Positions 472 to 46,796 of a stretch of DNA of 64,000 nt are shown here, piece after piece. Under the pieces are notes generated by a model that saw only the letters and a list, made by a program, of their open reading frames with translations, was not told the DNA's origin and did not search any database. Source of the stretch: Spirochaetia bacterium (GTDB lineage: Bacteria; Spirochaetota; Spirochaetia; DAHUYW01); NCBI GenBank assembly GCA_030041455.1, contig JASHNV010000146.1, positions 10,174-74,173 on the forward strand, written 5' to 3'. A program made the position numbers and the translations under genes. Within the stretch, counting starts at the first letter, position 1. Each line of letters begins with the position of its first letter.

Positions 472-480
472 GCTCTCCCT

Positions 481-508
481 TTGCGAATCGCGGTCACGAT
501 GGTATATT
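481..508 (+). promoter_or_regulatory. Putative sigma70-like promoter (TTGCGA-16-TATATT) for the UVR-motif gene
   Basis: -35 TTGCGA at 481-486, 16-nt spacer, -10 TATATT at 503-508 within an AT-rich patch (ggtatattatacc). The ATG at 539 is about 25 nt downstream of the predicted start site. Confidence 0.3.
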
Positions 509-538
509 ATACCGCAATGCGTGAATCGGGGCGCGATC

Positions 539-1282: not shown

Positions 1283-1331
1283 AGCCTGAAAGCGCTTGAT
1301 CAAGCTCCGTCGCCGGGATACCGTACGCGGC

Positions 1332-2144
1332 ATGAGACGCGCCGAGCGGAACGCGAGCTTCTCCCTGCGGTACGGCCCGTGGGCGGTCGTCCTCGGCGCG
1401 AGCGCCGGCCTCGGGGCGGCCTACGCGCGCGAGCTAGCCGCGAGAGGGCTCTCGATCGTCCTCGTCGCGCGCCGAGCCGAGCCGCTCTCGGCCCTCGCCG
1501 CCGAGATCCGCGCGAAGTTCGGCGTCGAGACGCGCGCGGTCGCGCTCGATCTCGGAAGCCCGGAGGTTCTCGCCGCGCTCGAGCGCGAGACGCGGAATCT
1601 CGACGTGGGGCTTGCCGTCTACAACGCGGCGAGTGTGGACATCGGGCCCTTTCTCGACGGTAGCCTTTCCGACCACCTCCGGGCGATCGACGTCAATTGT
1701 CGGGGACCGGTCGCCGTCGCCCATCACTTCGGCGGGAGGATGCGCGAGCGCGGCAGGGGAGGGATCGTGCTCATGTCCTCGCTCACGGCGTTCGGCGGAT
1801 CGCCCTACCTTGCGACCTACGGCGCCTCCAAGGCCTTCAATCTGATCTTCGCCGAGGGGATCGGCTACGAGCTCAGGAGGCTCGGAATCGACGTCACCGT
1901 CTGTTGCGCCGGGGCGACGCGGACTCCCGGCTACGAGGCTTCGGCGCCGCCGAAGGGCGCCTTCCCTCCGGTGATGGAGCCCGAGGCCGTCGTCCGCTCA
2001 GTGCTCCGCGCGCTCGGGCGGAGGACGGTCCTCGTCCCCGGCGGGGTGAACCGCGCGCTCAGCGCGCTCATGCGGCGGCTCCTACCGCGAGCCGCTGCGG
2101 TCGAGATCATGGGCGGAGCGGTGAGGGGCCTCGAAGGCACGTGA
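1332..2144 (+). CDS. Short-chain dehydrogenase/reductase (SDR)
   Basis: Gly-rich cofactor motif VVLGASAGLGAAYA near the N-terminus and a catalytic YGASKAF (YxxxK). ATG 1332 preferred; TTG 1296 is an alternative. The stop overlaps the next gene's start (GTGA). Confidence 0.7.
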   Translation: MRRAERNASFSLRYGPWAVVLGASAGLGAAYARELAARGLSIVLVARRAEPLSALAAEIRAKFGVETRAVALDLGSPEVLAALERETRNLDVGLAVYNAASVDIGPFLDGSLSDHLRAIDVNCRGPVAVAHHFGGRMRERGRGGIVLMSSLTAFGGSPYLATYGASKAFNLIFAEGIGYELRRLGIDVTVCCAGATRTPGYEASAPPKGAFPPVMEPEAVVRSVLRALGRRTVLVPGGVNRALSALMRRLLPRAAAVEIMGGAVRGLEGT

Positions 2145-4171
2145 GCGGCGCCGAAGAGGATCCTAGGCGCGGGCGGGCGGCCGCGCCCGATCGGAGGCTC
2201 CGCCTCGTGCGCGCGATCCTGTGGGACGAGCTCGAGCTTCGGCCGACGATCCAGATCAAGCTCGGGACCCGCCGCCGCCTCGATCCGCTCCGGCCGGTCG
2301 AGGGCTCGCGGCCCGGCAGGCCGCGCTACCGCGGCCAAGAGGTGGAGCTTGAGGGCCGATGGGAGGAGCTCGACGGGGGCGGGAGCCTCCTTCGGCTGCG
2401 GCTCGTAAACCGCGCGTCCGAGTCGATCCGCGTCACCCGGCTCACCTTCCCCACCGAGAACGGCTTGGCCGCCTTCATCGGAGATTTCCGTCCCGAGAAG
2501 ATCTCCTTCATGCGAAACGGCTACCAATCGTGGTCGACCGCGCGGAGCTATCGCCTTCGCGAGAAGCCGCTGAGACCCTGGCTGCTTCTCGTCTCGAGCG
2601 CTTCGAGCAACCTCGCGAACCTTCCCTCCAACCATCCCGGGATCCTCTCCTCGGAGATGTACTCGGTCATCACCGACGCCGAGCGCGGACAGTCGTTTCT
2701 CGTGGGCCAGGGCGCCCCGTTCAACCAGTTCCTCTACATCAAGCTGAACCTGTACCGCGGGCGGAAGAGAACGTCGCACTTCGAGCTGCAGTACGATTTC
2801 GGGCGCAGGATGATCGAGCCCGGCGAGCGGATCGAGCTCGACCGGATCGTCATGATGAAGGGCGAGACTCACGCCCTCATGGCGCGGTACTTCGCGCTCG
2901 TGAAAAGCGAGATGCGCCTCCGCCGTCCCGGGAAGAACGTCCGCGGATGGTGCACCTGGTACTCCTACCACAATCGGATCACGCCGGAGGCGATTCTCCG
3001 GAACGTCGAGATCATCGCGAGCCGGAAGCTCGACATCGACGTCATCCAAATCGACGACGGCTACCAGCGTCACGTCGGAGACTGGCTCGACCCCGCAGAC
3101 CCCTTCAAGGGGCGCATGCGCGAGCTCGCCGACCGCATCCGGGAGGCGGGCTACCGCCCCGGGATCTGGATCGCGCCCTTCGCCGCGAGCCTGACCTCCG
3201 ACCTCCTCCGGCACCATCCGGATTACGTGTCGCGAACCGAGCGGGGTAAGCCGATCGTCTGCGGCTACGCGCCTTTCTGGCGAGGACGACTCTACTACGG
3301 GCTGGACATCACCAACCCCCGCTTCGCCGAGTACATCCGGCGCGTGATCCGGACCATCGTGCGCGAGTGGGGCTTCACCTACCTGAAATGCGACTTTCTC
3401 TTCACCGGGGCGCTCCGCGAGTCCGACCCGCGGGACATCGGCCGCTCCCGGGCGGAGATCCTGCGGGAGGGGATGCGAATGATCCGCGAGGAGGCGGGAG
3501 CCGGCGTCACGATCGTCGGCTGCGGGATGCCGCTCTCGACGGGAATCGGCGCCGTCGACGCGATGCGGATCGGGCCCGACACCGGGCCCTTCTGGATCAA
3601 GCGCGTGGGCAGGCTCCTTCGCACCGGCGCGATGGTCGGCGTCCGCAACTCGATGCGAAACGTCATGGTGCGGAGCGCGATGAACAAGAACCTCTGGCTG
3701 AACGACCCCGACTGCCTCATGGTGAGGAAGGCGCGGACCTCCCTGAGCCCGGAGGAGCGGATGAGCCAAATCAACGCCATCATCCTCTCGGGAGGGGCGC
3801 TCGTCTTCAGCGACGATTTCTCAAGCTTGTCGGCCGACGCGATGGAAGAGGCCGCGAAGATCGGCAGGCTGAGCAACGCCTGCTTTCGAGGCACGGCGGT
3901 CGCGGTCGACCTCATGGAGCGCGAGATCCCCCAGATCTTCTACAACACGGCGGGCTTCCTCGGGCTCTTCAATCCCACCGAGCGCCGTCAGACGATCGAG
4001 GTACGGCTCGAGACGCTCCCCTGGGCGAAGGGGCGCTACGCGCACATCGTGCCGTACGACGTCTGGTCGGGCCGGCCCTATCCTCTCCGGGACGGCTCCA
4101 CCCTCGTCGCCCACCGCATGCCCCGGCACTCCTCGATCCTCCTCACGCTCCGCGGGATGCCCTTTCCCTGA
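2141..4171 (+). CDS. Alpha-galactosidase-like glycoside hydrolase (GH36/melibiase family)
   Basis: Motifs GWCTWYSYHNRI, IDVIQIDDGYQ, IWIAPF and YLKCDF(LF) typical of GH36/GH27 alpha-galactosidases. The track ORF from 1697 overlaps the SDR gene. GTG at 2141 overlaps the SDR stop (GTGA); GTG 2207 is an alternative start. Confidence 0.6.
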   Translation: MSGAEEDPRRGRAAAPDRRLRLVRAILWDELELRPTIQIKLGTRRRLDPLRPVEGSRPGRPRYRGQEVELEGRWEELDGGGSLLRLRLVNRASESIRVTRLTFPTENGLAAFIGDFRPEKISFMRNGYQSWSTARSYRLREKPLRPWLLLVSSASSNLANLPSNHPGILSSEMYSVITDAERGQSFLVGQGAPFNQFLYIKLNLYRGRKRTSHFELQYDFGRRMIEPGERIELDRIVMMKGETHALMARYFALVKSEMRLRRPGKNVRGWCTWYSYHNRITPEAILRNVEIIASRKLDIDVIQIDDGYQRHVGDWLDPADPFKGRMRELADRIREAGYRPGIWIAPFAASLTSDLLRHHPDYVSRTERGKPIVCGYAPFWRGRLYYGLDITNPRFAEYIRRVIRTIVREWGFTYLKCDFLFTGALRESDPRDIGRSRAEILREGMRMIREEAGAGVTIVGCGMPLSTGIGAVDAMRIGPDTGPFWIKRVGRLLRTGAMVGVRNSMRNVMVRSAMNKNLWLNDPDCLMVRKARTSLSPEERMSQINAIILSGGALVFSDDFSSLSADAMEEAAKIGRLSNACFRGTAVAVDLMEREIPQIFYNTAGFLGLFNPTERRQTIEVRLETLPWAKGRYAHIVPYDVWSGRPYPLRDGSTLVAHRMPRHSSILLTLRGMPFP

Positions 4172-5965: not shown

Positions 5966-6808
5966 TTAACTCTTGACGGCTCCCGAGGTGAGCCCCTCGA
6001 CGAGCCGCGTCTGGACAAACGAGAAGAGGAGAATCGTCGGAACGATCGTGAGGACGGTCGCGGCGGCGACCTGCCCCCAGCGGAGAATGAGCGCGCTTCC
6101 GAGGCGCTGGAGCGCGAGGGTAAGCGTCGAGGTTCGCTGGCTCTGGGAGATGACCGAGACCACGAGATAGTCGCCCCAGGACACGACGAACGCGTAGAAG
6201 GCCGCCACCATGATCCCCGGCGCCGAGATCGGAAGGACGATGCGGGAAAGCGTCTGGAACAGGTTGCAGCCGTCGATCCGGGCGGAATCTTCGATGTCCT
6301 TCGGCAGGTTGTCGAAGTATCCCTTGAGCATCCACACGGCGAAGGGCAGCACGAGCATGAGCTGGCCGAGGGCGACGCCGACGATCGTGTTGAACAGCCC
6401 GATGGCGAAGATGACCGTGTAGATCGGAATGAGGAGCAGCACCACCGGAAACATCTGCATCGAGAAGACGCCCATGATGTAGGCGTTCTTGCCCCTCAGG
6501 GGGTAGCGGCTGAGCCCGTAGGCGCCGGGGATCGAGAGGAGCATCGACGCGGCGGTCACGACGAGGCCGAGGCGCAGCGAGTTCCAGAAGTAGACCGGAA
6601 AGTCGGTGACCGAGAGGACCGTCTTGTAGTTGTCGACCGTGAAGTCCTTCGCCGCGGTGTAGATCTTCGCGCTGAAGATCGCTTCGGGGGTGCGGAACGA
6701 GCTGTAGGCGATCCACAGCATGGGCGTGATGAAGAACAGGAACGCGACGACGCAGACGAGGTAGGTGAGCACGTAGCGGAAGGTTCTTCGCTGTCGCTTC
6801 GTCAACAT
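5966..6808 (-). CDS. ABC sugar transporter permease (AraQ/MalG-like)
   Basis: Six TM segments with the EAA-type loop ...IEDSARIDGCNLFQTLSRIVLPISAPG... ATG at 6808. The stop of the upstream permease is 4 nt away. Confidence 0.8.
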   Translation of the reverse strand: MLTKRQRRTFRYVLTYLVCVVAFLFFITPMLWIAYSSFRTPEAIFSAKIYTAAKDFTVDNYKTVLSVTDFPVYFWNSLRLGLVVTAASMLLSIPGAYGLSRYPLRGKNAYIMGVFSMQMFPVVLLLIPIYTVIFAIGLFNTIVGVALGQLMLVLPFAVWMLKGYFDNLPKDIEDSARIDGCNLFQTLSRIVLPISAPGIMVAAFYAFVVSWGDYLVVSVISQSQRTSTLTLALQRLGSALILRWGQVAAATVLTIVPTILLFSFVQTRLVEGLTSGAVKS

Positions 6809-6811: not shown

Positions 6812-7687
6812 TCAGGTCTCCCGCCGCTCGTAGATGCGGATGTAAACGACGAAATAGATCATGAGGACGACGAACATGACGACGCCGATGCTCGAGGCGT
6901 ATCCCACGCTGTAGCTCTGCCAGGCCTGGAGGTACAGGTAGACCGGCAGCACCTCGGTGGCGTAGACGGGGCCGCCCCCCGTCGAGAGGTAGACCATGTC
7001 GAAATTGTTGAAGGTCCACAGAACGTGAATGGTCACCATCACGATCATCATGTTGCGCACCCCCGGCACCGTGACGTGAACAAAGCTCCGCCAGGGGCCG
7101 GCGCCGTCGATCTCCGCCGCCTCGTAGGTCGTGTGGGGGATCGCCTGAATCGCGGCGAGGAAGGCGATCCCGTAGAACGGCACGTTTCGCCAGAGGTGAA
7201 GGAGGATGATCACGGGGAAGGCGAGCTGGAGGTCGCCGAACCAGAAGTTGTTCGCCTTGATGCCGAGCGCGTGGAGGACGATGTTGTAGAAGCCGTATCC
7301 CGGCTCCACCATGAACTGGAAGATGATCGCGGTCGCGGCGACCGGGATCACCCAGCTTGCCATGATGATGCTGCGAACGAAGCGGATGCCGGGCACCTCC
7401 TGCTTCAGGGCGAGCGCCAGGATCAACCCGAGCACGAGCTGCAGCACGACGACCGACGCGGTGAGGACGAGCGAGTGGAGGAAGGCGCCCCAAAAGATCG
7501 GGTCGTGCGCGAGCTTGACGTAGCTCTGGAGCCCGATCCAGTGCTCGCCCTTGTTGAGGAGATTCGAGTCGGTGAAGGAGAGCCTGAAACCCTCGATGAG
7601 CGGCAGCACCGAGAAGAGCGCCATGACGACGAGGGTCGGCATGATGAGAGGCAGGCCGCTGTTCTCCTTGATGAATCGCGCCTTCAC
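6812..7687 (-). CDS. ABC sugar transporter permease (AraP/MalF-like)
   Basis: Hydrophobic permease with EAAEIDGAGPWRSFVHVTVP. GTG at 7687 (VKARFIKE...) has a GGAGGGGG SD 8 nt upstream. The track's TTG 7711 has no SD. Confidence 0.75.
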   Translation of the reverse strand: MKARFIKENSGLPLIMPTLVVMALFSVLPLIEGFRLSFTDSNLLNKGEHWIGLQSYVKLAHDPIFWGAFLHSLVLTASVVVLQLVLGLILALALKQEVPGIRFVRSIIMASWVIPVAATAIIFQFMVEPGYGFYNIVLHALGIKANNFWFGDLQLAFPVIILLHLWRNVPFYGIAFLAAIQAIPHTTYEAAEIDGAGPWRSFVHVTVPGVRNMMIVMVTIHVLWTFNNFDMVYLSTGGGPVYATEVLPVYLYLQAWQSYSVGYASSIGVVMFVVLMIYFVVYIRIYERRET

Positions 7688-7773
7688 GTTGGAACCCCCT
7701 CCGGGCGACAAAGAGACGGGCGGCGGCGGCCGGAAAAGGCGGCCGCCGCGCGCCCGATGGGATCGTCGAATTG

Positions 7774-9114
7774 CTAGATCGTGCCCGCCGTGATGAGACC
7801 GGTCACCGTGTCATGCAGCCACTGCGCCGCGTCCTGCGGACTCTTCTGGCCGTAGATCACGTAGTTGATCGCGTGCATCTCCGCGTCGGAGACCGGGCCC
7901 CAGTTGATGGGCTCCTGGGCGTGCGCCTGCGGGAGGAGCGCCGCGAACATCTTCAGCCAGTTCCCCAAGGGTCCCTGGAAGACCGGGAGGTCGAGGGAGT
8001 CCGTGCGGGCGGGGATGCCGCCGCTTGAGGCCATCCAGTTGCCCATGTTGTCCTTCGAGGTGATGAACTGAATGAGCTTCCAGGCTCCCGCCTTGTCCTT
8101 GGAGTAGTGGTTCATCATGATGGGCTTCACCTCAAGGTAGGTGCCGGCGGTTCCTCCGGGCGGGATGGGCAGCGCGGTGACGACCGAGTTGTCGAGGATC
8201 GTCGCGGCGGCGGGGTCGCCGTTTCGCCGTCCCCAGAGCCACGGACCTTCCGGAGCCATCGCCCACTTGCCGGACGTGTAGCCGGGATCCTCGCTCGGCC
8301 AGCCGTTTCCGCGCTCGGCCGGGTCGATCGCGGGGGTATCGCCCGCGAAGGCCTGCTGATAGAGGGTGAGGATCTCGGTCAGCTGCGCGATCGTCGGGTT
8401 GTAGGTCTTGGTGCCGCCTGAGATGGTGAACATCGGCTGGCCGCCGCCCACCTGGAACCACCACGAGATGACCTCCTGGGGCGCGCGGGGATCGCCGACC
8501 TTGGTGCACAGGAACAGGCCGTACATCTGCGCGTTCGTCGCCTTCGTGATCGCCTGGCCCTCGCTGATGAGGTCGTTCCACGTCTGCGGCACCGGCAGGT
8601 TGTACTGGGCGAGCACGTCCTTGCGATAGATGAGGCCGCGCGCGTTCGTGTTGTAGGGGATGCCGTAGAGCTTGCCGTCGATCGTGAGGGGCGCGAGCGT
8701 CGCCTGCACGAACTGGTCCTTGTCCGCCCACGCGTTGAAGTAGGAATCGAGCGGCTCGATCAGCCCCTTTTGGACGTAGACGGCCGTGTCTTCAAGGAGT
8801 CCCTCGATCACGTCGGGCGTCCCGCTTGAAGCCTGGATCAGGAACTTGGCGCGCAGAGGGTCGTAGTCGCCGGGTCCGAAGAAGTCGCTCACCGTGTAGC
8901 CGGGAAGCGCGGTCTTCACGTTCGCGAGCCACGTCTTCACGTAGTCGGGCGAGACCTCCTGCGTCACGAACGGCATGTTCCAAAAGGAAAGCGTCCCTCC
9001 GCTCGTGCCGGACGACGAGGCGCTCTCGCTTGTGCCCGTCGCGAACAGCGCGGGCGACGCGATGAACAGCGCCGCGCCGAAACACAGTCCTCCGAAAATC
9101 AGTTTCCTTTTCAT
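7774..9114 (-). CDS. ABC transporter sugar-binding protein, family 1 (AraN-like)
   Basis: ATG 9114 (MKRKLIFGGLCFGAALFIASPALFATG... signal peptide) with AAGGAG upstream. About 446 aa, solute-binding fold. Sits between araD and the permeases. Confidence 0.8.
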   Translation of the reverse strand: MKRKLIFGGLCFGAALFIASPALFATGTSESASSSGTSGGTLSFWNMPFVTQEVSPDYVKTWLANVKTALPGYTVSDFFGPGDYDPLRAKFLIQASSGTPDVIEGLLEDTAVYVQKGLIEPLDSYFNAWADKDQFVQATLAPLTIDGKLYGIPYNTNARGLIYRKDVLAQYNLPVPQTWNDLISEGQAITKATNAQMYGLFLCTKVGDPRAPQEVISWWFQVGGGQPMFTISGGTKTYNPTIAQLTEILTLYQQAFAGDTPAIDPAERGNGWPSEDPGYTSGKWAMAPEGPWLWGRRNGDPAAATILDNSVVTALPIPPGGTAGTYLEVKPIMMNHYSKDKAGAWKLIQFITSKDNMGNWMASSGGIPARTDSLDLPVFQGPLGNWLKMFAALLPQAHAQEPINWGPVSDAEMHAINYVIYGQKSPQDAAQWLHDTVTGLITAGTI

Positions 9115-9220
9115 AATCTTGGTCACACTCCTTGCTTTCGAGATTTCTTCGCACAATGAGACGAGCATCTTCCTTTCCCTTCCCTATCACCTCCCTCCTT
9201 CGCAGCCGGCGGCCGGGCTG

Positions 9221-9931
9221 CTAGTGCCCGGCCGCCGGCTGGCCGTAATACGCCCCCGCGCCGTGCTTGCGCTTGAAGTGCTTGTCGAGCAGATTCCGCG
9301 GGATCGCCTCAGGCTCCGGGTTGATGGCGTACGTCAAGGCCGCCATCTTCGCGATCTGCTCGAGGGCGATCGCGTTCGCGAGCGCCCCCGCGGCGCTCGG
9401 GCCCCACGCGAACGGCCCGTGATGCGGGAGCAGGATCCCGGGGACGTCGAGCGGATCGAGCCCGAGGCTCCGGAACGTCTCGACGATCACGCGCCCGGTT
9501 TCCCGCTCGTAGAACCGAAGCTCCTCGTCCGAGAGCCTCCGCGCGCAGGGAACCGGCCCGTAGAAATGGTCGGCGTGCGTCGTGCCGAGGCACGGGATTT
9601 CGCGGCCGCTCTGCGCCCAGCTCGTCGCGTAGGTCGAGTGGGTGTGCACGATGCCGCCGACCCCGCCGAAGGCGCGGTAGATCTCCGCGTGGGTCGGCGT
9701 GTCCGAGGAAGGGCTGAGCTCGCCGTCCGAGACCGTTCCGGTCGCGAGGGACACGATGACGATGTCGCGCGCGCGGAGCTTGTCGTAGGCGACTCCGCTC
9801 GGCTTGATCGCGAGGACCCCGGCCGCCCGGTCGAGGCCGCTCGCGTTGCCCCACGTGAGCACGACGAGGCCCGCCTCGACGATCTCCATGTTGACGCGGT
9901 AGACCTCCTCGCGCAGCCGAGCGAAGCTCAT
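9221..9931 (-). CDS. araD: L-ribulose-5-phosphate 4-epimerase
   Basis: 236 aa from MSFARLREEVYRVNMEIVEAGLVVLTWGNASGLDR...; class II aldolase/epimerase fold with HTHS motif (GGIVHTHSTYATSWAQ). The ATG at 9931 overlaps the araB TGA (ATGA). Confidence 0.85.
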   Translation of the reverse strand: MSFARLREEVYRVNMEIVEAGLVVLTWGNASGLDRAAGVLAIKPSGVAYDKLRARDIVIVSLATGTVSDGELSPSSDTPTHAEIYRAFGGVGGIVHTHSTYATSWAQSGREIPCLGTTHADHFYGPVPCARRLSDEELRFYERETGRVIVETFRSLGLDPLDVPGILLPHHGPFAWGPSAAGALANAIALEQIAKMAALTYAINPEPEAIPRNLLDKHFKRKHGAGAYYGQPAAGH

Positions 9932-11616
9932 AGTCCGCGCGCCTCGTCGCGAATGCGAAGAAGCTCCTTCATGACGTCGAAGAGGTTGTCGCGATACTCC
10001 CGCGTGCCGAAGATATCGTGGAGCTTCCGGTAGAGCCGGTAGATCCGATCGTAGACCCGGGCGCTCTCGCGCTCGGGCGTGTAGCGCCTCGGGAGCACGC
10101 CGGTCATCCTCGCCGCCGCGGCCTCGAAGGTGTCGTGGCCCCCCGCGCGCGCTCCGGCGACGACCGCGCCCGCCATCGCGGAGCCGAGCGCCGGGGTCTC
10201 CGTGCTCCGCGAGATTTCGATCGGGCGGCCCATGACGTCGGCGCAAATCTGCATGAAAAGGGGATTCTTCTGGGGGATCCCGCCGCAGGCGACGATCCGC
10301 TCGACCGAGACTCCGTACTCCTCGAATCGCTCGGCGATGATCCGGGAGCCGAAGGCGGTGGCCTCGATGAGGGCGCGATAGATCTCGGCGGCCGTCGAAT
10401 GGAGCGAGAGCCCGAGGATCAGACCGGTGAGCCGTTGGTCGACGAGGACCGTTCGGTTGCCGTTCTCCCAATCGAGGGCGAGGAGGCCGCTCTCGCCCGC
10501 CTTGAGCTTCGCCGCCTGCTCGCTCAAGCTCGCGTGGCTACCCCGCTCCTTGCCGCCGGGCTGGATGAAGCTTACGTACCAGTTGAAAATGTCTCCCACC
10601 GCGGACTGACCGGCCTCCAGGCCGAAGTTCCCCGGCAGGATCGACTCCGGAACGATCCCGCAGAGGCCGGGGATGTCCCTCATTCCCTTCGCGAGGGGCG
10701 ACACGAGGAGGTCGCAGGAGGAGGTGCCGATGTTCTTCACGAGCGTCCCCGGCTCGATCCCCGAGCCCACGCCGCCGACGTGGGCGTCGAAGGCGCCGAC
10801 CGCGACCGGAAGCCCCCGCGGGAGACCGAGCTTCTCCGCCCACTCGCCGCTCAGGAAGCCCGCCGCCTCCCGGATCGTGTGGACCTCGGCGGGGAGGCTC
10901 TCGCGGACGCGGGCGAGCTCCGGATCGAGCCGCGCGAGGAACTCAGCCTCGGGGTAGCCGCCCCAGTCCCGGTGGTACATCGCCTTGTGCCCGGCCGCGC
11001 AGATCCCCCGCTTCACCTGGTCCGGACGCGTCGTGCCGGTGAGCACCGCGGGAATCCAATCGGTGAGCTCGATCCAGGTGAAGGCCGCCGCGAAGACCTC
11101 GGGGGCGGTCCGCTTGCAGTGCAGGAGCTTCGCCCAATACCACTCGGAGGAATACACGCCGCCGCATTTCGCGAGGTACTGGGGTCGAATTTTCGCGGCG
11201 AGCTCGGTGATCTCCGCCGCCTCGGCGAACGCCGTATGATCCTTCCAGAGCCAGGCGAGCGCGGCCGGGTGGCTCCCGCGCTCAGGCGAGAAGGCGAGAG
11301 GCGTGCCGGCGCGATCGACCGGGATCGGCGTGCTTCCCGTCGTGTCGACGCCGATCCCGATCACCTGCTCGGCGGCGAAGCCCTTTCGGTCCCGCGCCTT
11401 TCGGAGGGCGTCGGTGATCGTCGCGACGAATCCGTCGACGTAGTCTTGGGGATGCTGGCGCGCGAAGTTCGGATCGCGCTCGTCGACGACCACGCCGTTT
11501 TCCCCGTGCGCGTAGCCCCAGACGCTCGAGGCGATCTCTTCGCCGGTCTGCGAATCCACGATGAGGGAGCGCACCGAATTCGTGCCGTAATCGAGCCCGA
11601 TCGCGAAGTTGCCCAC
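9928..11616 (-). CDS. araB: Ribulokinase (FGGY family)
   Basis: 562 aa, N-terminal FAIGLDYGTNSVRSLIVD and FGGY signatures (GTSSCDL..., ACGGIPQKNPLFMQICADVMGRPIE). GTG start 11616 with GAGGAG 8 nt upstream. Confidence 0.85.
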   Translation of the reverse strand: MGNFAIGLDYGTNSVRSLIVDSQTGEEIASSVWGYAHGENGVVVDERDPNFARQHPQDYVDGFVATITDALRKARDRKGFAAEQVIGIGVDTTGSTPIPVDRAGTPLAFSPERGSHPAALAWLWKDHTAFAEAAEITELAAKIRPQYLAKCGGVYSSEWYWAKLLHCKRTAPEVFAAAFTWIELTDWIPAVLTGTTRPDQVKRGICAAGHKAMYHRDWGGYPEAEFLARLDPELARVRESLPAEVHTIREAAGFLSGEWAEKLGLPRGLPVAVGAFDAHVGGVGSGIEPGTLVKNIGTSSCDLLVSPLAKGMRDIPGLCGIVPESILPGNFGLEAGQSAVGDIFNWYVSFIQPGGKERGSHASLSEQAAKLKAGESGLLALDWENGNRTVLVDQRLTGLILGLSLHSTAAEIYRALIEATAFGSRIIAERFEEYGVSVERIVACGGIPQKNPLFMQICADVMGRPIEISRSTETPALGSAMAGAVVAGARAGGHDTFEAAAARMTGVLPRRYTPERESARVYDRIYRLYRKLHDIFGTREYRDNLFDVMKELLRIRDEARGL

Positions 11617-11640
11617 CTGATGTCTCCTCGCCGGATATTA

Positions 11641-11653
11641 GTACAGCCTGTAC
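11641..11653. promoter_or_regulatory. Candidate AraR operator 1: palindrome GTACAG-C-CTGTAC
   Basis: Perfect 6+1+6 inverted repeat seen directly, about 25-38 bp upstream of the araB start, with the GTAC core shared with Bacillus AraR boxes. Followed immediately by a 10-nt repeat CTATCGTATC. Confidence 0.4.
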
Positions 11654-11668
11654 CTATCGTATCCGGAC

Positions 11669-11697
11669 ATCATAGCACGGTTACGATTGCGGCGCAA
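11669..11697 (-). promoter_or_regulatory. Putative araB operon promoter (minus strand: TTGCGC-17-TATGAT)
   Basis: On the minus strand, -35 TTGCGC (plus 11692-11697) and -10 TATGAT (plus 11669-11674) with a 17-nt spacer. Operator 1 lies just downstream of the predicted start site. Confidence 0.25.
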
Positions 11698-11713
11698 GGG
11701 AGAATCGGCATCG

Positions 11714-11742
11714 TTGACAGCCGCCCAAGGAGCGGCTATCGT
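11714..11742 (+). promoter_or_regulatory. Putative araR promoter (TTGACA-17-TATCGT)
   Basis: Consensus -35 TTGACA at 11714-11719, 17-nt spacer, -10-like TATCGT at 11737-11742 (part of the second CTATCGTATC repeat). Operator 2 begins about 9 nt downstream, consistent with autoregulation. Confidence 0.35.
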
Positions 11743-11750
11743 ATCAGTCG

Positions 11751-11764
11751 ATACAGCTTGTACT
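11751..11764. promoter_or_regulatory. Candidate AraR operator 2: imperfect palindrome ATACAG-C-TTGTAC
   Basis: Near-repeat of operator 1 (TACAGC[CT]TGTAC), 15 bp upstream of the araR start and preceded by the CTATCGTATC repeat. Together with operator 1 it gives a mirror-symmetric layout around position about 11700. Confidence 0.35.
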
Positions 11765-11778
11765 AACAGGACGCTGGG

Positions 11779-12876
11779 GTGAGAAAATACGAGCTAGTCG
11801 AGGATTGGGTTCGTACGAGCATCCGCGACAACCGCATCGCGCCGGGCGACAAGCTGCCGTCGGAGAGCCAGCTCTGCGCGCAGTTCGGAGTCTCGCGCAA
11901 CGCCGTCCGCCAGGCAATCCGAAATCTCGCCCACGAGGGATCGGTCGAGAGCGTCAAAGGGGTGGGGACCTTCTGCCGGAAGCGGCTCGCCAACTCGATG
12001 CTCTCCACGAACATCGGCTTCGTCTGCTTCTTCTCGGGCTCCTACATCTTCCCCGAGATCATCCGCGGCTGCGATCACGTCCTCTACCAGCGCGGCTTTC
12101 ACCTGCTGCTCAACCAGTCGGAGTACGATCTCGAGAAGGAGCGCGCCATTCTCGTCAATCTCAAGAAAAAGGGAGTCGACGGGATCATCATCGAGCCGGT
12201 CTTCGACGGTCACGGCCGATCAAACGCCGATCTCCTCGGCGAGCTTTCCGACCAGGGAACGCCGGTGGTGCTCATCGACAATTATTTCGCTTCCCCCGAG
12301 TTCAGCGTCGTTTCGCTCGACGACCGCCTCGGCGGTGCGGAGGCCGCCTCGTTCGTGTGGAACAAGGGCCACCGGCGCATCGGCGTGTTCTACCAGGCCG
12401 ACTACCAGGTGAAAATACTCAGGAAAGAGGGCGCCCTCGAGCGTCTCGCGCGGCTCGGCGCCGCCGTCCCGGACGCGTGGATCGTCGGCTTCAACGGCCA
12501 GGGGCCCGCAAGCGAGGCGCCGAGAGCGGCCGAGCGTTTCTTCGGCGCCTCGGTCGAGCTTCCCTCCGCGATGATCTGCAGCAACGACGAAGAGGCCCTT
12601 CACCTCATGCAGGCCGCGGAGCGCCACGGGATTCGCGTTCCCGACGATCTGTCGGTGGTCGGCTTCGACAACTCGAGCATCGCGCAGATCGGGCAGGTCT
12701 CCCTCACCTCGGTCCACCATCCGAGCTTCGCGATGGGGGAGACGGCGACCACGATCCTGCTCGAGAAGATCTTTCACCCGGAGCTCCGGTTCGTCACGCG
12801 GACCATCATTACCCCGACGCTCGTCGAGCGCTCCTCCGTCCGAACGATCGAGACCGAGGAGGTGGGCGTGCGATGA
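11779..12876 (+). CDS. araR: AraR-type repressor (N-terminal GntR HTH + C-terminal PBP1/LacI-type sugar-binding domain)
   Basis: N-terminal ...LPSESQLCAQFGVSRNAVRQAIRNLAHEG (GntR HTH). The rest (IGFVCFFSGSYIF...VDGIIIEPV...VVLIDNY...MICSNDEEALHLM...VVGFDNS) is a periplasmic-binding-protein type 1 effector domain. Divergent from araB. Confidence 0.8.
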   Translation: MRKYELVEDWVRTSIRDNRIAPGDKLPSESQLCAQFGVSRNAVRQAIRNLAHEGSVESVKGVGTFCRKRLANSMLSTNIGFVCFFSGSYIFPEIIRGCDHVLYQRGFHLLLNQSEYDLEKERAILVNLKKKGVDGIIIEPVFDGHGRSNADLLGELSDQGTPVVLIDNYFASPEFSVVSLDDRLGGAEAASFVWNKGHRRIGVFYQADYQVKILRKEGALERLARLGAAVPDAWIVGFNGQGPASEAPRAAERFFGASVELPSAMICSNDEEALHLMQAAERHGIRVPDDLSVVGFDNSSIAQIGQVSLTSVHHPSFAMGETATTILLEKIFHPELRFVTRTIITPTLVERSSVRTIETEEVGVR

Positions 12877-14417
12877 GGGACCTCCTCTGCGGGATCGACG
12901 TCGGCACGAACGGCGTCAAGGCGATGCTGTTCGACGCCGCAGGCGGGGTCAAGGGAGAGGGCCGGGCGGAGTACCCGACCGCGCATCCCGCGCCGGGCTG
13001 GGCGGAGCAGCTGCCCGAGGATTGGTGGACGGCGCTCTGCCGCGCGACTCGGCGCATGATCGAGTCGTCGGGCGCGGAGCCAGGCCGAGTCGGCGGGATC
13101 GCCGTGAGCGCCCAGGCGCCGACGCTGATCGCCCTCGACGGAGACGGGGAGCCGGTGCGGCCCGCGCTCATCTGGATGGACCGCAGAGCCGACCGCGAGG
13201 CGGAGAGGGTCGGCCGCTCGCTCGAAGCGGCCGGCCTCCACGCGCTCACCGGGAACCGCCCGGATTCCTTCTACGTCGCCGCGAAGATTCTTTGGCTCAA
13301 GGAGCGCGAGCCCGACCGTTTCCGCAGAACGCGCCGCTTCCTCCAGATCAACGGCTACCTCGGCTACCGCCTCTCGGGCCGATTCTCCCTCGACACCGTC
13401 CACGCGGGGCTCCTCCAGCTTCGCGCGTGGCCGGGCGGCTCGTGGATTCCGGAGCTCATGGCGCTCTGCGGGGTCGAAAGCGGCCAGTTCCCCGACGTGA
13501 GCGCGCCCCACGAGATCGTCGGCGAGGTGAGCGAGCGGGCCTCGGTCGATTGCGGCCTCGAGGTCGGCACGCCGGTGCTCGCCGGCACCGTCGACGGCGC
13601 GGCGGCGGCGATCGAAGCGGGCGCCGTGCTTCCCGGAGCGGCGGCCGAGATGACGGGAACCTCGACCGTGCTGCTCATGCCCAACGCCGGCGCGGCGACG
13701 GAGCCGAGCTTCATCGCGATGCCCCATGCCGTTCCGGGCGCGTACCTCCTCCTCGGCGCGATGTCGTCGACCGGCGCGTCGCTTCGCTGGTTTCGAGACG
13801 AGCTCGGCGCGGAGGCGGTCGCCTCCGCGCGCGCGCGGGGGATCGACCCCTACGAGGCGCTCGCCGAGGAGGCCGCCGCGAGCCCGCCGGGAAGCAACGG
13901 CGTTCTCTTCCTGCCGTACATGATGGGGGAGCGCTCGCCCCTCTGGAACTCGAACGCGCGAGGCCTTTTCTTCGGCATGACGCTCGGCACGAAACGCTCG
14001 GATCTCGTCCGCTCGATCCTCGAGGGGACCGCCTACGCGCTCAGGCACAACGTCGAGGTGGCGCGGACGGCGGGGGTGACGCTTTCCGAGCTCCGCAGCG
14101 TCGGGGGCGGCTCGCGAAGCCCGCTCTGGTGCCAGATCAAGGCCGACGTTCTCGGAGTTCCAGTCCACGTGCCCTCAAGCGCCGGGGGCGCTCCGTTCGG
14201 CGACGCCGTCCTTGTGTCCATGGCGCTCGGGCGCTGTCCCGACGTTCCCGGATACCTCGCGCGCGCCGTGCGGATCGCGAGGAGCCACCTGCCGAATCCG
14301 GCGCATCGTGCGCTCTACGACGAGCGCTACCGTCTTTTTCGCGAGCTCTACGAGGCGGTTCGAGGGGTTTTCGACCGGTCGGCCGAGGCGGAACGGGACG
14401 GGAGGCGCCAGACGTGA
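12873..14417 (+). CDS. FGGY-family carbohydrate kinase (xylulokinase/pentulose kinase-like)
   Basis: 514 aa starting MRDLLCGIDVGTNGVKAMLFD; FGGY motifs (GTSTVLL..., VGGGSRSPLWCQIKADVLG). ATG 12873 overlaps the araR TGA (ATGA) with GAGGAGG upstream. It lies inside a longer spurious track ORF (11805..14417). Confidence 0.8.
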   Translation: MRDLLCGIDVGTNGVKAMLFDAAGGVKGEGRAEYPTAHPAPGWAEQLPEDWWTALCRATRRMIESSGAEPGRVGGIAVSAQAPTLIALDGDGEPVRPALIWMDRRADREAERVGRSLEAAGLHALTGNRPDSFYVAAKILWLKEREPDRFRRTRRFLQINGYLGYRLSGRFSLDTVHAGLLQLRAWPGGSWIPELMALCGVESGQFPDVSAPHEIVGEVSERASVDCGLEVGTPVLAGTVDGAAAAIEAGAVLPGAAAEMTGTSTVLLMPNAGAATEPSFIAMPHAVPGAYLLLGAMSSTGASLRWFRDELGAEAVASARARGIDPYEALAEEAAASPPGSNGVLFLPYMMGERSPLWNSNARGLFFGMTLGTKRSDLVRSILEGTAYALRHNVEVARTAGVTLSELRSVGGGSRSPLWCQIKADVLGVPVHVPSSAGGAPFGDAVLVSMALGRCPDVPGYLARAVRIARSHLPNPAHRALYDERYRLFRELYEAVRGVFDRSAEAERDGRRQT

Positions 14418-15478
14418 GAACGTACCGCATGCTGGTCACCGCCCGCTTCGAGTCGAGCGAGCTCGATCGTATTCGGCGGTTTCTTTCCGGAGTCGAGCTC
14501 GCCGGGTACGGGGTGACCCGGGAGAAGCTGACCGAGGAGGAGCTCTCGACGGCCTTGCGGGGAGTCGACATCCTCGTTCTCGAGTTCGAGCCCGTGACCC
14601 GCCGCGTCCTCGAGGCAGCGGGCGACCTGAAGCTCGTCGGCTGCTGCCGGACCGGACCGGAGGCGAGCGTCGACATTCAGGCCGCAAGCGAGCTCGGCGT
14701 TCCCGTGCTCTATACCCCGGGCCGCAACGCGGTGTCGGTCGCCGAGTACACCTTCGCCCTCATGATCTCGGTCGCCCGCCATCTGCCCGAGGCGCACCGC
14801 CTCCTTCGCTACACCGACGAGCTCACCGGGGTCGACTACGGCGACGCGGCGGCGGACCGTCTCGGCGCGACCTCCGAGTGGAGCCTCGATCCGCGGGCGC
14901 CGTTCAACCGCTTCCAGGGGGCCGAGCTCTCGGGGAAGACGCTCGGGCTCGTCGGCTTCGGAGCGATCGGCAGGGAGATCGCGCGCCGGGCTCTCGCGTT
15001 CGACATGCGGGTTGCGGCCTTCGACCCCTACGTGCGGCCGGCCGAGGCCGCGGGGGCCGAGCTTCTCGATCTCGACGAGCTCGCGAGGCGATCGGACTTC
15101 CTCGTCATGGCCGCGAAGGTCACTCCCGAGACGGTCGGGCTCTTCTCCGCGCGCCACTTCGCGCTCATGAAGCGCACCGCGTACTTCATCAATACCGCGC
15201 GGGCCGCGCTTGCCGACTACCGGGCGCTCTACGCGTGCCTCGAGGAGGGGCGCATCGCGGGGGCCGGGATCGACGTGTACGACGAGGAGCCCATCCGGAG
15301 CGACAACCCCCTGCGGCGGCTTGCGAACGTCGTCCTGAGCCCGCACCTCGCGGGGGCGAGCTTCGACATCCCGCGTCATCATAGCCGCATCATGGTCGAC
15401 CAGCTCGAGGCGGCGCTCGGCGGCAGGCAGCCGAGCTTCCTGAAGAATCCCGAAGTCTGGCCACGGAGGCGCGCGTGA
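14414..15478 (+). CDS. D-isomer-specific 2-hydroxyacid dehydrogenase (NAD-binding)
   Basis: GLVGFGAIGREIARRA (GxGxxG), FDPY, VLSPHLAGAS motifs. GTG 14414 overlaps the kinase TGA (GTGA) with GGGAGG 8 nt upstream; ATG 14429 is an alternative. Confidence 0.75.
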   Translation: MRTYRMLVTARFESSELDRIRRFLSGVELAGYGVTREKLTEEELSTALRGVDILVLEFEPVTRRVLEAAGDLKLVGCCRTGPEASVDIQAASELGVPVLYTPGRNAVSVAEYTFALMISVARHLPEAHRLLRYTDELTGVDYGDAAADRLGATSEWSLDPRAPFNRFQGAELSGKTLGLVGFGAIGREIARRALAFDMRVAAFDPYVRPAEAAGAELLDLDELARRSDFLVMAAKVTPETVGLFSARHFALMKRTAYFINTARAALADYRALYACLEEGRIAGAGIDVYDEEPIRSDNPLRRLANVVLSPHLAGASFDIPRHHSRIMVDQLEAALGGRQPSFLKNPEVWPRRRA

Positions 15479-16233
15479 GCGAGGGAGTTGCGCGGAAGGC
15501 CCGCGTCGCGCTCGTGACCGGCGCCTCGCGCGGGATCGGACGGGCGGTCGCCCTCAAGCTCGGGCGGAGCGGCATCCCGGTCGCGGTCCATTTCCATCGG
15601 GACCGCGCCGCGGCGGACTCGCTCGTCGCCGAGCTTGAGAGCGCAGGCGGCCGCGCGGTCTCGATCCAGGCCGATCTCGCCCGACCACCCGAGAGCGCCG
15701 CTCTCGTCGCGGCCGTCCGAACGGCGCTCGGCGATCCCCTCATTCTCGTGAACAACGCCGGGGAGATGAGCGACTTCACGGTCGAGGCGATGCCGGAGGA
15801 GACCTGGGAGCGAACGCTGTCGCTCCATCTCGGCGCCGCCTTCAGGCTCTCCCAGCAGTGCCTCGCGGGAATGCGCGCGGCGGGCTGGGGGCGCATCGTG
15901 AGCCTCTCCTCGCAGGCCGCCTTCACCGGCTCGGCGCGCCACGCCCACTACGCCGCGGCGAAGGCAGGCCTTCACGGCTTCACCTATTCGCTCGCGAAGG
16001 AGGTCGGCGGCGCCGGCATCACCGCGAATCTCGTCGCCCCCGGCCGGATCGCGACCGAGCTTCTCCTCGAGCGCTCGGAGGGGAGGATGGAGGAGTGGCT
16101 CGCGCAGATTCCCTTGCGGAGACTCGGTACGGTCGAGGAGGTGGCCGACATCGTGGGATTTCTCGTTTCCGACGAGGCTTCCTACGTCAACGGCGCGACG
16201 TTCCACGTGAACGGCGGGCAGCTCATGTCGTAG
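15475..16233 (+). CDS. SDR oxidoreductase (FabG-like)
   Basis: ALVTGASRGIGRA, NNAG, YAAAKAG motifs. GTG 15475 overlaps the upstream TGA (GTGA) with GGAGG upstream. Confidence 0.8.
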   Translation: MSEGVARKARVALVTGASRGIGRAVALKLGRSGIPVAVHFHRDRAAADSLVAELESAGGRAVSIQADLARPPESAALVAAVRTALGDPLILVNNAGEMSDFTVEAMPEETWERTLSLHLGAAFRLSQQCLAGMRAAGWGRIVSLSSQAAFTGSARHAHYAAAKAGLHGFTYSLAKEVGGAGITANLVAPGRIATELLLERSEGRMEEWLAQIPLRRLGTVEEVADIVGFLVSDEASYVNGATFHVNGGQLMS

Positions 16234-16251
16234 CAGCCCGCAAGCGGTTGA

Positions 16252-16279
16252 TTTTCACCCGGCAACCGTGCACTATAAA
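16252..16279 (+). promoter_or_regulatory. Possible sigma70-like promoter (TTTTCA-16-TATAAA) for the receiver gene
   Basis: AT-rich patch gttgattttcacccggcaaccgtgcactataaacg in the 114-nt gap after the SDR stop. Weak -35. Confidence 0.2.
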
Positions 16280-16347
16280 CGAATCTTTCACCGGACGTCG
16301 TGGCCGAGCCGGGCGTCCGGGGTGAAAAGAAGGTGGGTACGACTGAG

Positions 16348-16758
16348 ATGAACGAAAAGAGGCCCGACGGCCTGAAGCCCGAAGGCAGCCCGTACCGAGT
16401 TCTCGTCATTGACGACTCTCTGTTCGTGCAGAAGCAGCTTGCGCAGATCCTTACCTCCGAAGGCTACGAGATTGCCGGGGCCGCGACCGACGGGAATCAG
16501 GGTCTTACGATGTACAAGGAGCTCCATCCGAACGTCGACATCGTCACGATGGACGTGACCATGCCCGGCGTGGACGGAATCAGCTGCCTCGAGAAGATCA
16601 TGGAGTTCGACAAGACGGCGAAGGTTGTCATGGTCAGCGCCCTCGGGAAACAGGACCTCGTGAAGAAGGCCTTTCTCCTCGGAGCGAAGAACTATATCGT
16701 GAAGCCGCTCGACCGCGAGAAGGTCCTCGAGCGCTTTCGCGCGATCGTCGGCGGCTGA
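16348..16758 (+). CDS. Single-domain CheY-like response regulator receiver
   Basis: RVLVIDDSLFVQKQ...DIVTMDVTMPGVDGIS...VVMVSALG...KNYIVKP: the canonical receiver residues (DD, phospho-Asp, T/S, K) are all present. ATG 16348. Confidence 0.8.
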   Translation: MNEKRPDGLKPEGSPYRVLVIDDSLFVQKQLAQILTSEGYEIAGAATDGNQGLTMYKELHPNVDIVTMDVTMPGVDGISCLEKIMEFDKTAKVVMVSALGKQDLVKKAFLLGAKNYIVKPLDREKVLERFRAIVGG

Positions 16759-16996
16759 CGCTTTCGAGAGGGGGGCTTTGCGGGGAAAGACCCTGCTCGA
16801 GCCGCCCTCTTCGCGCGGCTTCTCGCTCCTCCCTCTCCGTATGCTTTTTCTCGGACGCGCTCCCTTTTCCCTCGCGACAGGCGCGGGTCGTCGACCCTGT
16901 GCCTCCCGAGAAAGGCGTGGCGAGGAACGGACCGCGCGATCGCGAGCGGCGCGCGACCGATCCCCATCTTCTCGAGAGCAAGGAGCGGAATCTCCG

Positions 16997-17689
16997 ATGA
17001 AAGGCGAACGCGGCGATCGAGGCTCAACGACGGAGGGGCAACTCGCCTCCGCGAAGGGCCCGGGACCCATCCGAGCGGTCATCTTCGACTACGGCAACGT
17101 CTTGAGCTATGCCTTGGACCCCGGGAGCCGAAACGAGATGCAGCGTCTCGCGGGCGTTCCGGCCGATCGCTTCCAGGCCGCCTACTTTCGAGACCGAGCG
17201 GCCTACGACCGGGGCGACGCGAGCCTGCGAGACTATTGGACCGGCGTCATCGCGCCCTACGGCGCTCCGCCGAGCGACGAGCTTTTGCGGAAGCTCGTCG
17301 TCGCGGACGCGGAAGGCTGGATGCGCATTCGCGAGCCGATGGTCGCGTGGGCGAAGGCGCTCAAGGCGGCCGGGATACGGACCGCGATTCTCTCGAACAT
17401 GCCGATCGATCACCGGCACTATATCGTCGAGCGTCTCGCGTGGATCCGAGAGGTCGACGTGCGGGTGTTTTCCGCCGAGATCGGACGCGTCAAGCCCGAG
17501 CCCGAGATCTACCGGATCTGTCTCGAGCGGATCGGCCTCCCGGGAGCGGCGTGCCTCTTCATCGACGATCTTCCCGAGAACGTCGATGCCGCGCGGCGCG
17601 AGGGCATCTCGGGAGTGGTGTTCGAGTCCGAGCGGCAGCTTGCCGAGGTGATCGCGGGCCATCCTGAGCTTCCGGCCTTTGCGGGGTAG
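16997..17689 (+). CDS. HAD-superfamily hydrolase, subfamily IA
   Basis: From MKGERGD... (AGGAGCGG SD 9 nt upstream). AVIFDYGNVL (motif I DxG), ILSNM (motif II), K...FIDD (motifs III/IV). The track ORF's upstream 73 codons are low-complexity. Confidence 0.7.
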   Translation: MKGERGDRGSTTEGQLASAKGPGPIRAVIFDYGNVLSYALDPGSRNEMQRLAGVPADRFQAAYFRDRAAYDRGDASLRDYWTGVIAPYGAPPSDELLRKLVVADAEGWMRIREPMVAWAKALKAAGIRTAILSNMPIDHRHYIVERLAWIREVDVRVFSAEIGRVKPEPEIYRICLERIGLPGAACLFIDDLPENVDAARREGISGVVFESERQLAEVIAGHPELPAFAG

Positions 17690-42667: not shown

Positions 42668-42745
42668 TAGCTATCCGGGAGGGCAGGAGGGGAGGTTCCT
42701 ACCACGAGACGGTTTTCGCTCGTTATCGCGTCGGTCGCGCTCGTT

Positions 42746-43705: not shown

Positions 43706-43785
43706 CGCAGGCGGCCTCGGGCCACGCGCAAATGAGATTGCCCCGTGTAGGGCAAGAAGAATTGATCCGAAGGAGGAAATAGACC

Positions 43786-44811: not shown

Positions 44812-44930
44812 ATTTTTCACGCGGACGGGCAGTGCCTTTGCGGCCCGTCCGCCCCATAGTACAATCAAGGGGTCGCGCGGGCGGCCGGTACAGGGAGACA
44901 TTTCCCGCGCTCGCGGCTGCGAGGTGGCAC

Positions 44931-45698: not shown

Positions 45699-45721
45699 GC
45701 CGACTGACACAAGGAGAGCAC

Positions 45722-46729
<1,008 letters not shown>

Positions 46730-46796
46730 GCGGCGGAGGGACTTCGAAGCCGGTTCGCTTGCATTCTTGAAGTCGGTCAACTACACTTTGGGTGAG

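Follow-up and report, generated by a model that had tools for sequence, protein, structure and literature searches.

A 64,000-nucleotide stretch of a Spirochaetia bacterium genome (GCA_030041455.1, contig JASHNV010000146.1; the whole stretch is referred to below as the window) raises the question of why a gene for an AraR-type repressor should head a run of three genes for enzymes that the classical arabinose pathway does not call for: an FGGY carbohydrate kinase, a D-isomer-specific 2-hydroxyacid dehydrogenase (2-HADH) and a short-chain dehydrogenase/reductase (SDR). A first-pass annotation had seen in them a candidate new catabolic branch under AraR. Our analysis indicates that AraR control, one part of that proposal, is probable in this genome; the branch itself is better described as the lineage-specific capture of a widespread cassette. 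The reading we favour, in which an araR-headed operon under AraR boxes has captured a shuffled cassette whose chemistry begins with the kinase, is put forward tentatively, as having somewhat less than an even chance of being right as a whole.

The araR operon and its candidate operators

Four genes lie on the forward strand of the window, whose G+C content is about 67%, and all four open reading frames translate without interruption:

11779-12876, + strand: araR, repressor of the AraR type (GntR winged-helix domain at the N-terminus, LacI/GalR-type sugar-binding domain at the C-terminus)
12873-14417, + strand: FGGY carbohydrate kinase (Pfam FGGY_N/FGGY_C), catalytic and ATP-binding motifs intact
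14414-15478, + strand: 2-HADH (Pfam 2-Hacid_dh_C) of a distinct subfamily
15475-16233, + strand: FabG-like classical SDR (Pfam adh_short_C2), the conserved partner of the kinase

The genes run head to tail with 4-nt overlaps at 12873 (gcgATGAggg), 14414 (gacGTGAgaa) and 15475 (gcgGTGAgcg), and a purine-rich Shine-Dalgarno (SD) sequence stands 5-8 nt before each of these starts, namely GAGGAGGTG for the kinase, GGGAGG for the 2-HADH and GGAGG for the SDR. Translation of the frames and reading of the junctions confirmed what the first-pass annotation had said of the overlaps and of a separate SD for each gene; its single repressor-headed operon is likewise supported, by the overlapping stop and start codons and by a first gene that is genuinely of AraR type. 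The four genes are probably co-transcribed. Overlaps of 4 nt are ordinary in the operons of GC-rich genomes and are the sign of an operon, nothing exceptional.

An alternative 2-HADH start, ATG at 14429, would leave an 11-nt gap in place of the overlap, and deposited annotations of near-identical copies in metagenome-assembled genomes (MAGs) give the protein 349, 354 or 337 amino acids. We favour GTG at 14414 because close homologues share with the window's 2-HADH a 5-residue N-terminal extension (MxxxxMLVTARF). The arrangement is real and no assembly artefact, since an independent NCBI contig (L001, GCA_030051855.1), running from the 3' end of araR through the kinase, 2-HADH and SDR genes to the 5' end of a response-regulator gene, shows the same two outer junctions of the triad. 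Two more short contigs also encode proteins with 90% identity or more.

The araR product combines a GntR helix-turn-helix domain (PF00392, 71.6 bits, residues 4-65) with Peripla_BP_3 (PF13377, 113 bits). Its best PDB match is the effector domain of Bacillus subtilis AraR (3tb6, E 3.5e-36), ahead of PurR, and its N-terminus matches the DNA-binding domain of the same protein (4egy, E 5e-10). Homologues at 60-74% identity carry the label 'GntR family regulator of arabinose operon', and the nearest named AraR homologues are from Spirochaetia. The gene adjoins araA, araB and araD here, a linkage that recurs in three related loci (L095, L099 and L101). The four-gene operon is divergent from an araB-araD-ABC-araA cluster, and the 162-nt spacer between araB and araR holds three candidate regulatory features:

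11714-11742, + strand: candidate araR promoter, TTGACA-17 nt-TATCGT
11641-11653: operator-like palindrome 1, GTACAGCCTGTAC, an exact match to GTACA-N3-TGTAC
11751-11763: operator-like palindrome 2, ATACAGCTTGTAC, one mismatch to GTACA-N3-TGTAC

The promoter is the sole sigma70-like site on either strand of 11400-16900, a scan that found no internal promoter-like site within the operon, and L095 has a homologous TTGACA...TATCGT promoter. Terminator-like matches numbered 6, against 3.0 ± 1.6 in shuffled sequence, and were taken as not above expectation.

The two palindromes form a direct repeat with 110-nt spacing on either side of the araR promoter. Palindrome 1 is located 25-37 nt upstream of the araB GTG start, between a candidate -10 element (TATGAT, minus strand) and the araB SD; palindrome 2 begins 9 nt past the -10 hexamer of the araR promoter, which places it at about +1 to +15, with 15 nt left between its end and the araR start. 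With at most one mismatch, GTACA-N3-TGTAC has three matches in the window, against 0.06 expected. The third, at 949-961, was rejected as an operator: it lies inside a gene for a UVR-motif protein, and its counterparts in two related loci (L008 and L013) are conserved coding sequence with 2 mismatches. The palindrome is conserved in five related loci, L095 to L099, again in the spacer that precedes araR; their AraR proteins are 74% (L095), 65% (L096) and 63-64% (L097, L098 and L099) identical to that of the window; all carry two copies except L097, the relatives have a site at the position equivalent to palindrome 2, and the lineage consensus is GGTACAA-C-TTGTACC. Exact matches were absent from the other 94 loci checked. 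A motif scan of L096 also returned five near-identical copies of GGGGTCCCGGCTGTACGCG at 16510-16675, the first four (16510-16600) at 30-nt intervals and the fifth at 16657; their position within a FecR/DUF6600 gene suggests that they encode a repeated peptide unit.

Given this distribution, with the palindrome before araR in five related loci and in none of the 94 others, AraR is likely to control the enzymes in this genome and to regulate its own promoter. In the model we propose, the araR promoter would drive all four genes, with araR first, and would be repressed through the two boxes. Synthesis of the three enzymes would then require the release of AraR, for which L-arabinose is the presumed effector, and the operon would thus be arabinose-inducible.

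The three enzymes and the distribution of their cassette

The kinase matches FGGY_N with 168 bits and FGGY_C with 127 bits, and its residues D9/G11/T12, D241 and G411/G412 are invariant in 26 orthologues. It was placed by profile hidden Markov model scores, PDB matches and comparison with one EryA, and it falls under the curated cut-offs for XylB, AraB, GlpK, GntK, LsrK, FucK and RhaB. The best NCBIfam match, XylB (TIGR01312), reached 348.8 bits against a cut-off of 380.25, followed by GntK (252), LsrK (193), GlpK (179) and AraB (NF003154; 168.7, cut-off 428); the kinase scored 210 bits on NF011601 (cut-off 912) and 141 bits on 5C_CHO_kinase (cut-off 408.7). It is 33-35% identical to plasmid genes annotated as xylB, and a search of 72,556 plasmids found no orthologue, the best FGGY protein there being 37.5% identical. 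An EryA identity was rejected because the protein shares 27% identity, across 431 residues, with the kinase encoded in the erythritol locus of Rhizobium johnstonii pRL12, and Pfam scans of the window found no isomerase partners of the EryA type. Judged by its sequence, the kinase is a member of an uncharacterised orthogroup and is neither an ordinary xylulokinase nor AraB nor EryA.

The 2-HADH (PF02826, 178.8 bits) has the catalytic Arg-Glu-His triad (R263, E292 and H311), invariant in 14 homologues, and carries an insertion of about 25 residues. Its identity as phosphoglycerate dehydrogenase (PGDH, SerA) was rejected: it scored 206.8 bits on TIGR01327, below the cut-off of 454, and in an alignment to 1wwk the subfamily has an invariant Glu-Phe-Glu (E57/E59) where PGDH has its Arg-Ser anion-binding motif. 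The SDR (adh_short_C2, 168 bits) passed the subfamily model NF009466 (226.7 bits, cut-off 222) and stayed below the equivalog TIGR01830 (220.3 bits, cut-off 297.75); it weakly matches sugar dehydrogenase models, and its gene context is a sugar kinase, not fab genes. By these scores it is FabG-like at the subfamily level only. The pipeline labels xylulokinase, phosphoglycerate dehydrogenase and FabG for the three enzymes are probably wrong.

Metagenomes contain abundant homologues of the kinase (52-59% identity) and of the 2-HADH. From gene neighbourhoods and a scan of species-representative genomes we compiled 51 non-redundant loci, with 42% identity to the window's kinase as the lower limit; these were analysed among 595 related matches in species-representative genomes, and the cassette count is to be read as at least 51. 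In a neighbour-joining tree the 51 kinases form one clade, apart from the other FGGY kinases retrieved. An orthologous SDR (45-66% identity) lies directly downstream of the kinase or the 2-HADH in 31 of these loci, an orthologous 2-HADH stands between kinase and SDR in 12, and a 2-HADH paralogue is found just upstream in 7.

In 19 of the 51 loci, including L019, L020-L022, L023, L026, L033 and L058, the kinase adjoins a GlpD-like flavoprotein of about 560-580 amino acids. Canonical GlpD was rejected for these partners, which scored 249-264 bits on the GlpD model (cut-off 360). They are about 30% identical to EryB and 43-46% identical to RL_RS33905, an uncharacterised 'glycerol-3-phosphate dehydrogenase/oxidase' of R. 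johnstonii pRL12 whose gene, adjacent to the erythritol locus of that plasmid, stands beside another FGGY kinase gene; an EryA/EryB hypothesis for kinase and flavoenzyme together was rejected on 27-32% identity. No locus has both a 2-HADH and a GlpD-like gene (0 of 51; Fisher p 1e-5). The GlpD-associated kinases form one derived clade in the tree, and the kinases of GlpD-type and 2-HADH-type loci are equally similar to that of the window (51-58%). The kinase-SDR pair is the core of the cassette, and the 2-HADH alternates with the GlpD-like flavoenzyme.

The cassette is hosted by Anaerolineae, Caldilineae, Acidobacteriota, Opitutae (Verrucomicrobiota), Tepidisphaeraceae (Planctomycetota), Nanopelagicaceae (freshwater Actinobacteria) and a Streptomycetaceae MAG. 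Its linked transporters differ from locus to locus (RhaS/LsrB-like ABC systems, GRP-type permeases, CUT1 systems with two ATPases) and are often missing, and minimal loci consist of a transporter, the kinase and the GlpD-like gene only. Some loci add rhamnulokinase-like, class II aldolase, glycerol-1-phosphate-dehydrogenase-like or HAD-IIA phosphatase genes, class II aldolase-family neighbours occurring in just 10 of the 51. The cassette recurs near arabinose genes, in three arrangements, and near rhamnose-type genes (L009, L019, L023 and L042); the first three of these also have genes for rhamnulokinase-like proteins and class II aldolases, and the linked ABC binding proteins resemble rhamnose-binding and LsrB proteins. 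The link to rhamnose-type genes is real, yet it yielded no substrate, and a rhamnose-type substrate was set aside.

Two groups of loci are recorded here for their composition. In Nanopelagicaceae-like loci (L009/L010 and L042) the full triad lies inside a rhamnose-type ABC transporter operon, whose binding protein is closest to the rhamnose-binding protein 4kvf (E 1e-78) and which adjoins rhaM, rhaA, rhaEW and rhaB. L047, L050, L051 and L054 (Caldilinea), together with L024, are large loci with up to three FGGY kinases; they also contain a paralogue of the 2-HADH, the SDR, a gene resembling class II aldolases and another resembling glycerol-1-phosphate dehydrogenase (190 bits, cut-off 413), the last of which recalls the unexplained araM in the ara operon of B. 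subtilis.

The first-pass annotation had treated the triad as an arabinose- or AraR-specific branch, and this was not borne out: it is a widespread mobile cassette, with at least 51 loci in several phyla. Its suspicion that the second FGGY kinase is non-standard holds, since the protein does not cluster tightly with ordinary xylulokinases. Of the two observations that would together have pointed to a generic xylose or xylitol operon, tight grouping with xylulokinases was thus not seen, and occurrence of the triad independently of AraR was. Literature searches on FGGY kinases with 2-hydroxyacid dehydrogenase and SDR, on FGGY genome neighbourhoods and on AraR with FGGY returned nothing relevant.

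The surrounding genes and the position behind araR

The operon lies to the right of the following genes:

9928-11616, - strand: araB, ribulokinase (NCBIfam NF003154, 657 bits, cut-off 428)
9221-9928, - strand: araD (NCBIfam AraD, 318 bits, cut-off 257)
7774-9168, - strand: CUT1 ABC sugar-binding protein (Pfam SBP_bac_1)
6812-7711 and 5966-6808, - strand: two ABC permeases (Pfam BPD_transp_1)
4486 to about 6000 (longest frame to 6018), - strand: divergent araA (Pfam AraA_N, AraA_central and Arabinose_Iso_C)
383-1282, + strand: UVR-motif protein (Pfam)
1296-2144, + strand: a second SDR (SDR2, 282 amino acids; Pfam)
2150-4171, + strand: GH36 alpha-galactosidase (Pfam; PDB 1zy9, Thermotoga alpha-galactosidase GalA, E 1.7e-60)

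The score of araB confirms that a canonical ribulokinase is already present at the locus, as the first-pass annotation had said. The ABC transporter beside araD is an AraNPQ-like CUT1 system.

The closest relative on the araR side, L095, has the same gene order as the window (transporter, araD, araB, araR, response regulator, HAD hydrolase, HflX, MFS transporter and acetyl-CoA synthetase), with identities of 74% for AraR, 73-82% for araB, araD and the sugar-binding protein, 74% for the response regulator, 74% for HflX and 84% for acetyl-CoA synthetase. There the response-regulator gene follows 79 nt after araR and no cassette intervenes. In six other araR-relative loci with downstream sequence, no match to the kinase, 2-HADH or SDR was found behind araR. 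The first-pass annotation knew of no AraR operon of this composition, and no other araR-relative locus that we inspected has it.

The left side of the window is syntenic, at 49-77% identity, with L008 and L013, where the order is UVR-SDR2-(GH36)-kinase-2-HADH-(SDR), GH36 being present in L008, and where these genes are convergent with the same ABC, araD and araB genes. No AraR box within 2 mismatches was found in the promoter regions of L008 and L013. In the window, araA follows UVR-SDR2-GH36, and the cassette is instead behind araR, occupying precisely the interval from the araR stop codon to the response-regulator promoter. The 3' end of araR is extended by 7 codons that contain the kinase SD; these codons have no resemblance to the 3' end of the L008 GH36 gene, and the spacer that precedes the response-regulator gene aligns only loosely with its L095 counterpart. 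Neither the araR 3' end nor the response-regulator spacer holds a sequence trace that fixes the direction of relocation, which is judged from distribution only. Relocation within the locus, or re-acquisition, in the lineage of the window would be the simplest reading. In our model the cassette, built around the FGGY kinase and the FabG-like SDR, would have been shuffled horizontally and would have landed under the araR promoter in this lineage. The araR operon is best described as a local regulatory rewiring, through a cassette landing behind araR in this lineage only, and not as a general new arabinose pathway.

Several observations concern the neighbouring genes. Although the araA product has all three AraA domains, its score on the NCBIfam model for L-arabinose isomerase was just 176.5 bits (cut-off 622); the longest araA frame overlaps the upstream permease gene by about 50 nt, and the start is therefore probably further in. 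The UVR-SDR2-GH36 genes (383-4171) form an operon convergent with araA. On the 3' side of the SDR, 16300-17689 holds a single-domain response regulator (probable ATG at 16348) and then a HAD hydrolase, both kept in L095 (74% and 55% identity); no terminator was detected after 16233, between the SDR and the response regulator. Further away, 42671-47948 encodes two Peripla_BP_4 binding proteins, a ribose-type permease and a hybrid histidine kinase/response regulator, apparently unrelated to the ara locus. An Rfam search found no RNA element in the window.

Candidate chemistry, alternatives and meaning

The enzymes of the cassette suggest a short route that would begin with the kinase, which may phosphorylate a small acyclic polyol or ketose at its terminal CH2OH. 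Glycerol would be the simplest substrate, with the shortest route to a central metabolite, and C4-C5 polyols including L-arabinitol are possible. The 2-HADH would then oxidise the phosphorylated product in an NAD-dependent step, for which a large clade in other phyla may use the GlpD-like flavoenzyme; the SDR may carry out a keto-reduction or an oxidation before or after the other steps, and the product would be dihydroxyacetone phosphate or a pentulose phosphate. GlpD-family enzymes are known to act only on phosphorylated polyols (glycerol-3-phosphate, erythritol-4-phosphate), so a GlpD-like flavoenzyme in the place of the 2-HADH suggests that the kinase acts first. The same order is favoured by the minimal loci of transporter, kinase and GlpD-like gene and by the equal similarity of the kinases of both types. 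The first-pass annotation had implied that a dehydrogenase acts first, and the GlpD-like replacement in other phyla points the other way. Our best guess, held with modest confidence, is that a small polyol is phosphorylated and then oxidised.

The alternative closest to known operons is a classical pentitol branch, in which the SDR and/or the 2-HADH would oxidise xylitol, D- or L-arabitol or ribitol to a pentulose for a XylB-like kinase, so that the product joins the arabinose pentose-phosphate pool. XylB is indeed the closest curated family at 348.8 bits, kinase and SDR together make up the conserved core (31 of 51 loci), an SDR paired with an FGGY pentulose kinase is the architecture of the Klebsiella rbtDK ribitol operon, and AraD is at hand for L-ribulose-5-phosphate. 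The kinase, however, stays below the XylB cut-off and reaches at most 37.5% identity to any plasmid-borne FGGY protein, 2-HADH enzymes are not known as polyol dehydrogenases, many loci lack any transporter, and in 19 loci the place of the 2-HADH is taken by a GlpD-like enzyme expected to act on a phosphorylated substrate. Compared with rbtDK and dalDK, which pair an SDR or other dehydrogenase with a pentulose kinase, the window has a kinase of a distinct orthogroup (below the XylB and 5C_CHO_kinase cut-offs), an extra 2-HADH and, through the GlpD-like alternative, an argument for the reverse order of reactions. We consider this branch unlikely, although not far-fetched. A branch for aldonates or ketoaldonates, with the kinase acting on the (keto)aldonic acid, the 2-HADH at the 2-position of the phospho-acid and the SDR as a 5-keto reductase leading to 6-phosphogluconate or a phosphopentonate, appears very improbable. 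It would account for the invariant Arg-Glu-His triad typical of carboxylate-binding 2-HADHs, for FGGY gluconokinase as the second-best kinase model (252 bits) and for the weak sugar dehydrogenase matches of the SDR, and it has a parallel in Pseudomonas KguK/KguD (2-ketogluconate kinase and 2-keto-6-phosphogluconate reductase), where a kinase is followed by a 2-HADH acting on the phosphorylated product. All scores are nevertheless far under the family cut-offs, no lactonase or dehydratase occurs in the loci, a quinone-linked GlpD-like oxidase is an implausible stand-in for a keto-acid reductase, KguK is a PfkB rather than an FGGY kinase, and a ketoaldonate substrate is unsupported here.

It is also conceivable, though we think it unlikely, that a neutral rearrangement simply dropped the cassette behind araR, to be co-transcribed with no role in arabinose use. 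The cassette is absent from this position in L095 and six other araR-relative loci, it is stand-alone or in unrelated contexts in most phyla, and in L008 and L013 it has no upstream AraR box. Set against this, in three related genomes the cassette has stayed no more than about 6 kb from the same ara and ABC genes although the arrangements differ, and the precise 4-nt coupling, with an SD inside the extended araR 3' end, suggests that the fusion was selected. Returning to the captured, kinase-first cassette under AraR, several points weigh against it. A weak internal promoter may exist. The half-site TTGTAC is that of the published B. subtilis AraR box ATTTGTACGTACAAAT, but its arrangement differs from that operator, and the B. 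subtilis-type consensus TTGTACGTACAA has no match with up to 2 mismatches in the 64 kb, so that AraR binding here is a prediction. Absence of the PGDH Arg-Ser phosphate-binding motif from the 2-HADH weakens the analogy with dehydrogenases of phosphorylated substrates. The GlpD-type loci being one derived clade, the mutual exclusion may reflect a single replacement event, which the Fisher p value then overstates. SAQAPT at the place of the glycerol-binding NQRET motif of GlpK would argue against glycerol, and the recurrent L-sugar neighbours suggest a real but unexplained link to L-sugar catabolism.

Known systems resemble the operon in part. As in the B. subtilis AraR regulon (araR, araABDLMNPQ-abfA, araE), a chimeric GntR/LacI-type repressor is encoded divergently from the arabinose genes and is predicted to be autoregulated through boxes at its own promoter, TTGTAC half-sites occur, the catabolic operon includes an AraNPQ-like CUT1 transporter, and accessory enzymes without a clear arabinose role are present (there the AraL phosphatase and AraM glycerol-1-phosphate dehydrogenase). 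In B. subtilis, however, araR is monocistronic, the accessory enzymes are of other families, and the operator is TTGTAC-GTACAA, whereas here the half-sites are everted with a 1-bp spacer (GGTACAA-C-TTGTACC). The gntRKPZ operon of B. subtilis is likewise autoregulated and repressor-first, followed by an FGGY kinase and a dehydrogenase, but its regulator subfamily, substrate and enzymes are others, and it has a permease where the window's operon has none. The 19 loci in which an FGGY kinase adjoins a GlpD-family flavoenzyme recall eryA-eryB of Brucella and Rhizobium (erythritol kinase and erythritol-4-phosphate dehydrogenase) and glpK-glpD. The window differs in having a 2-HADH and no GlpD-like gene; identity is only 27% between its kinase and R. 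johnstonii EryA and about 30% between the GlpD-like partners and EryB, and EryC, TpiA2 and RpiB isomerases are missing.

Taken more broadly, the cassette may be an undescribed short pathway, either a reduce-phosphorylate-oxidise salvage of a small polyol or reactive carbonyl or a redox epimerisation next to a sugar phosphate group, that plugs into L-sugar and alpha-galactoside loci in at least six phyla and is here wired to AraR; we regard this as possible but doubtful.

The locus illustrates how a repressor gene can gain a downstream enzyme cassette and its regulon be extended in one step. Its main value is as a pointer, on the one hand to a candidate AraR operator defined for a lineage outside Bacillus and Clostridium, and on the other to an FGGY kinase orthogroup of wide distribution that keeps fixed dehydrogenase partners and has yet to be assigned a substrate. 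Assignment of that substrate would correct the annotation of many genomes of Anaerolineae, Acidobacteriota, Verrucomicrobiota and freshwater actinobacteria.

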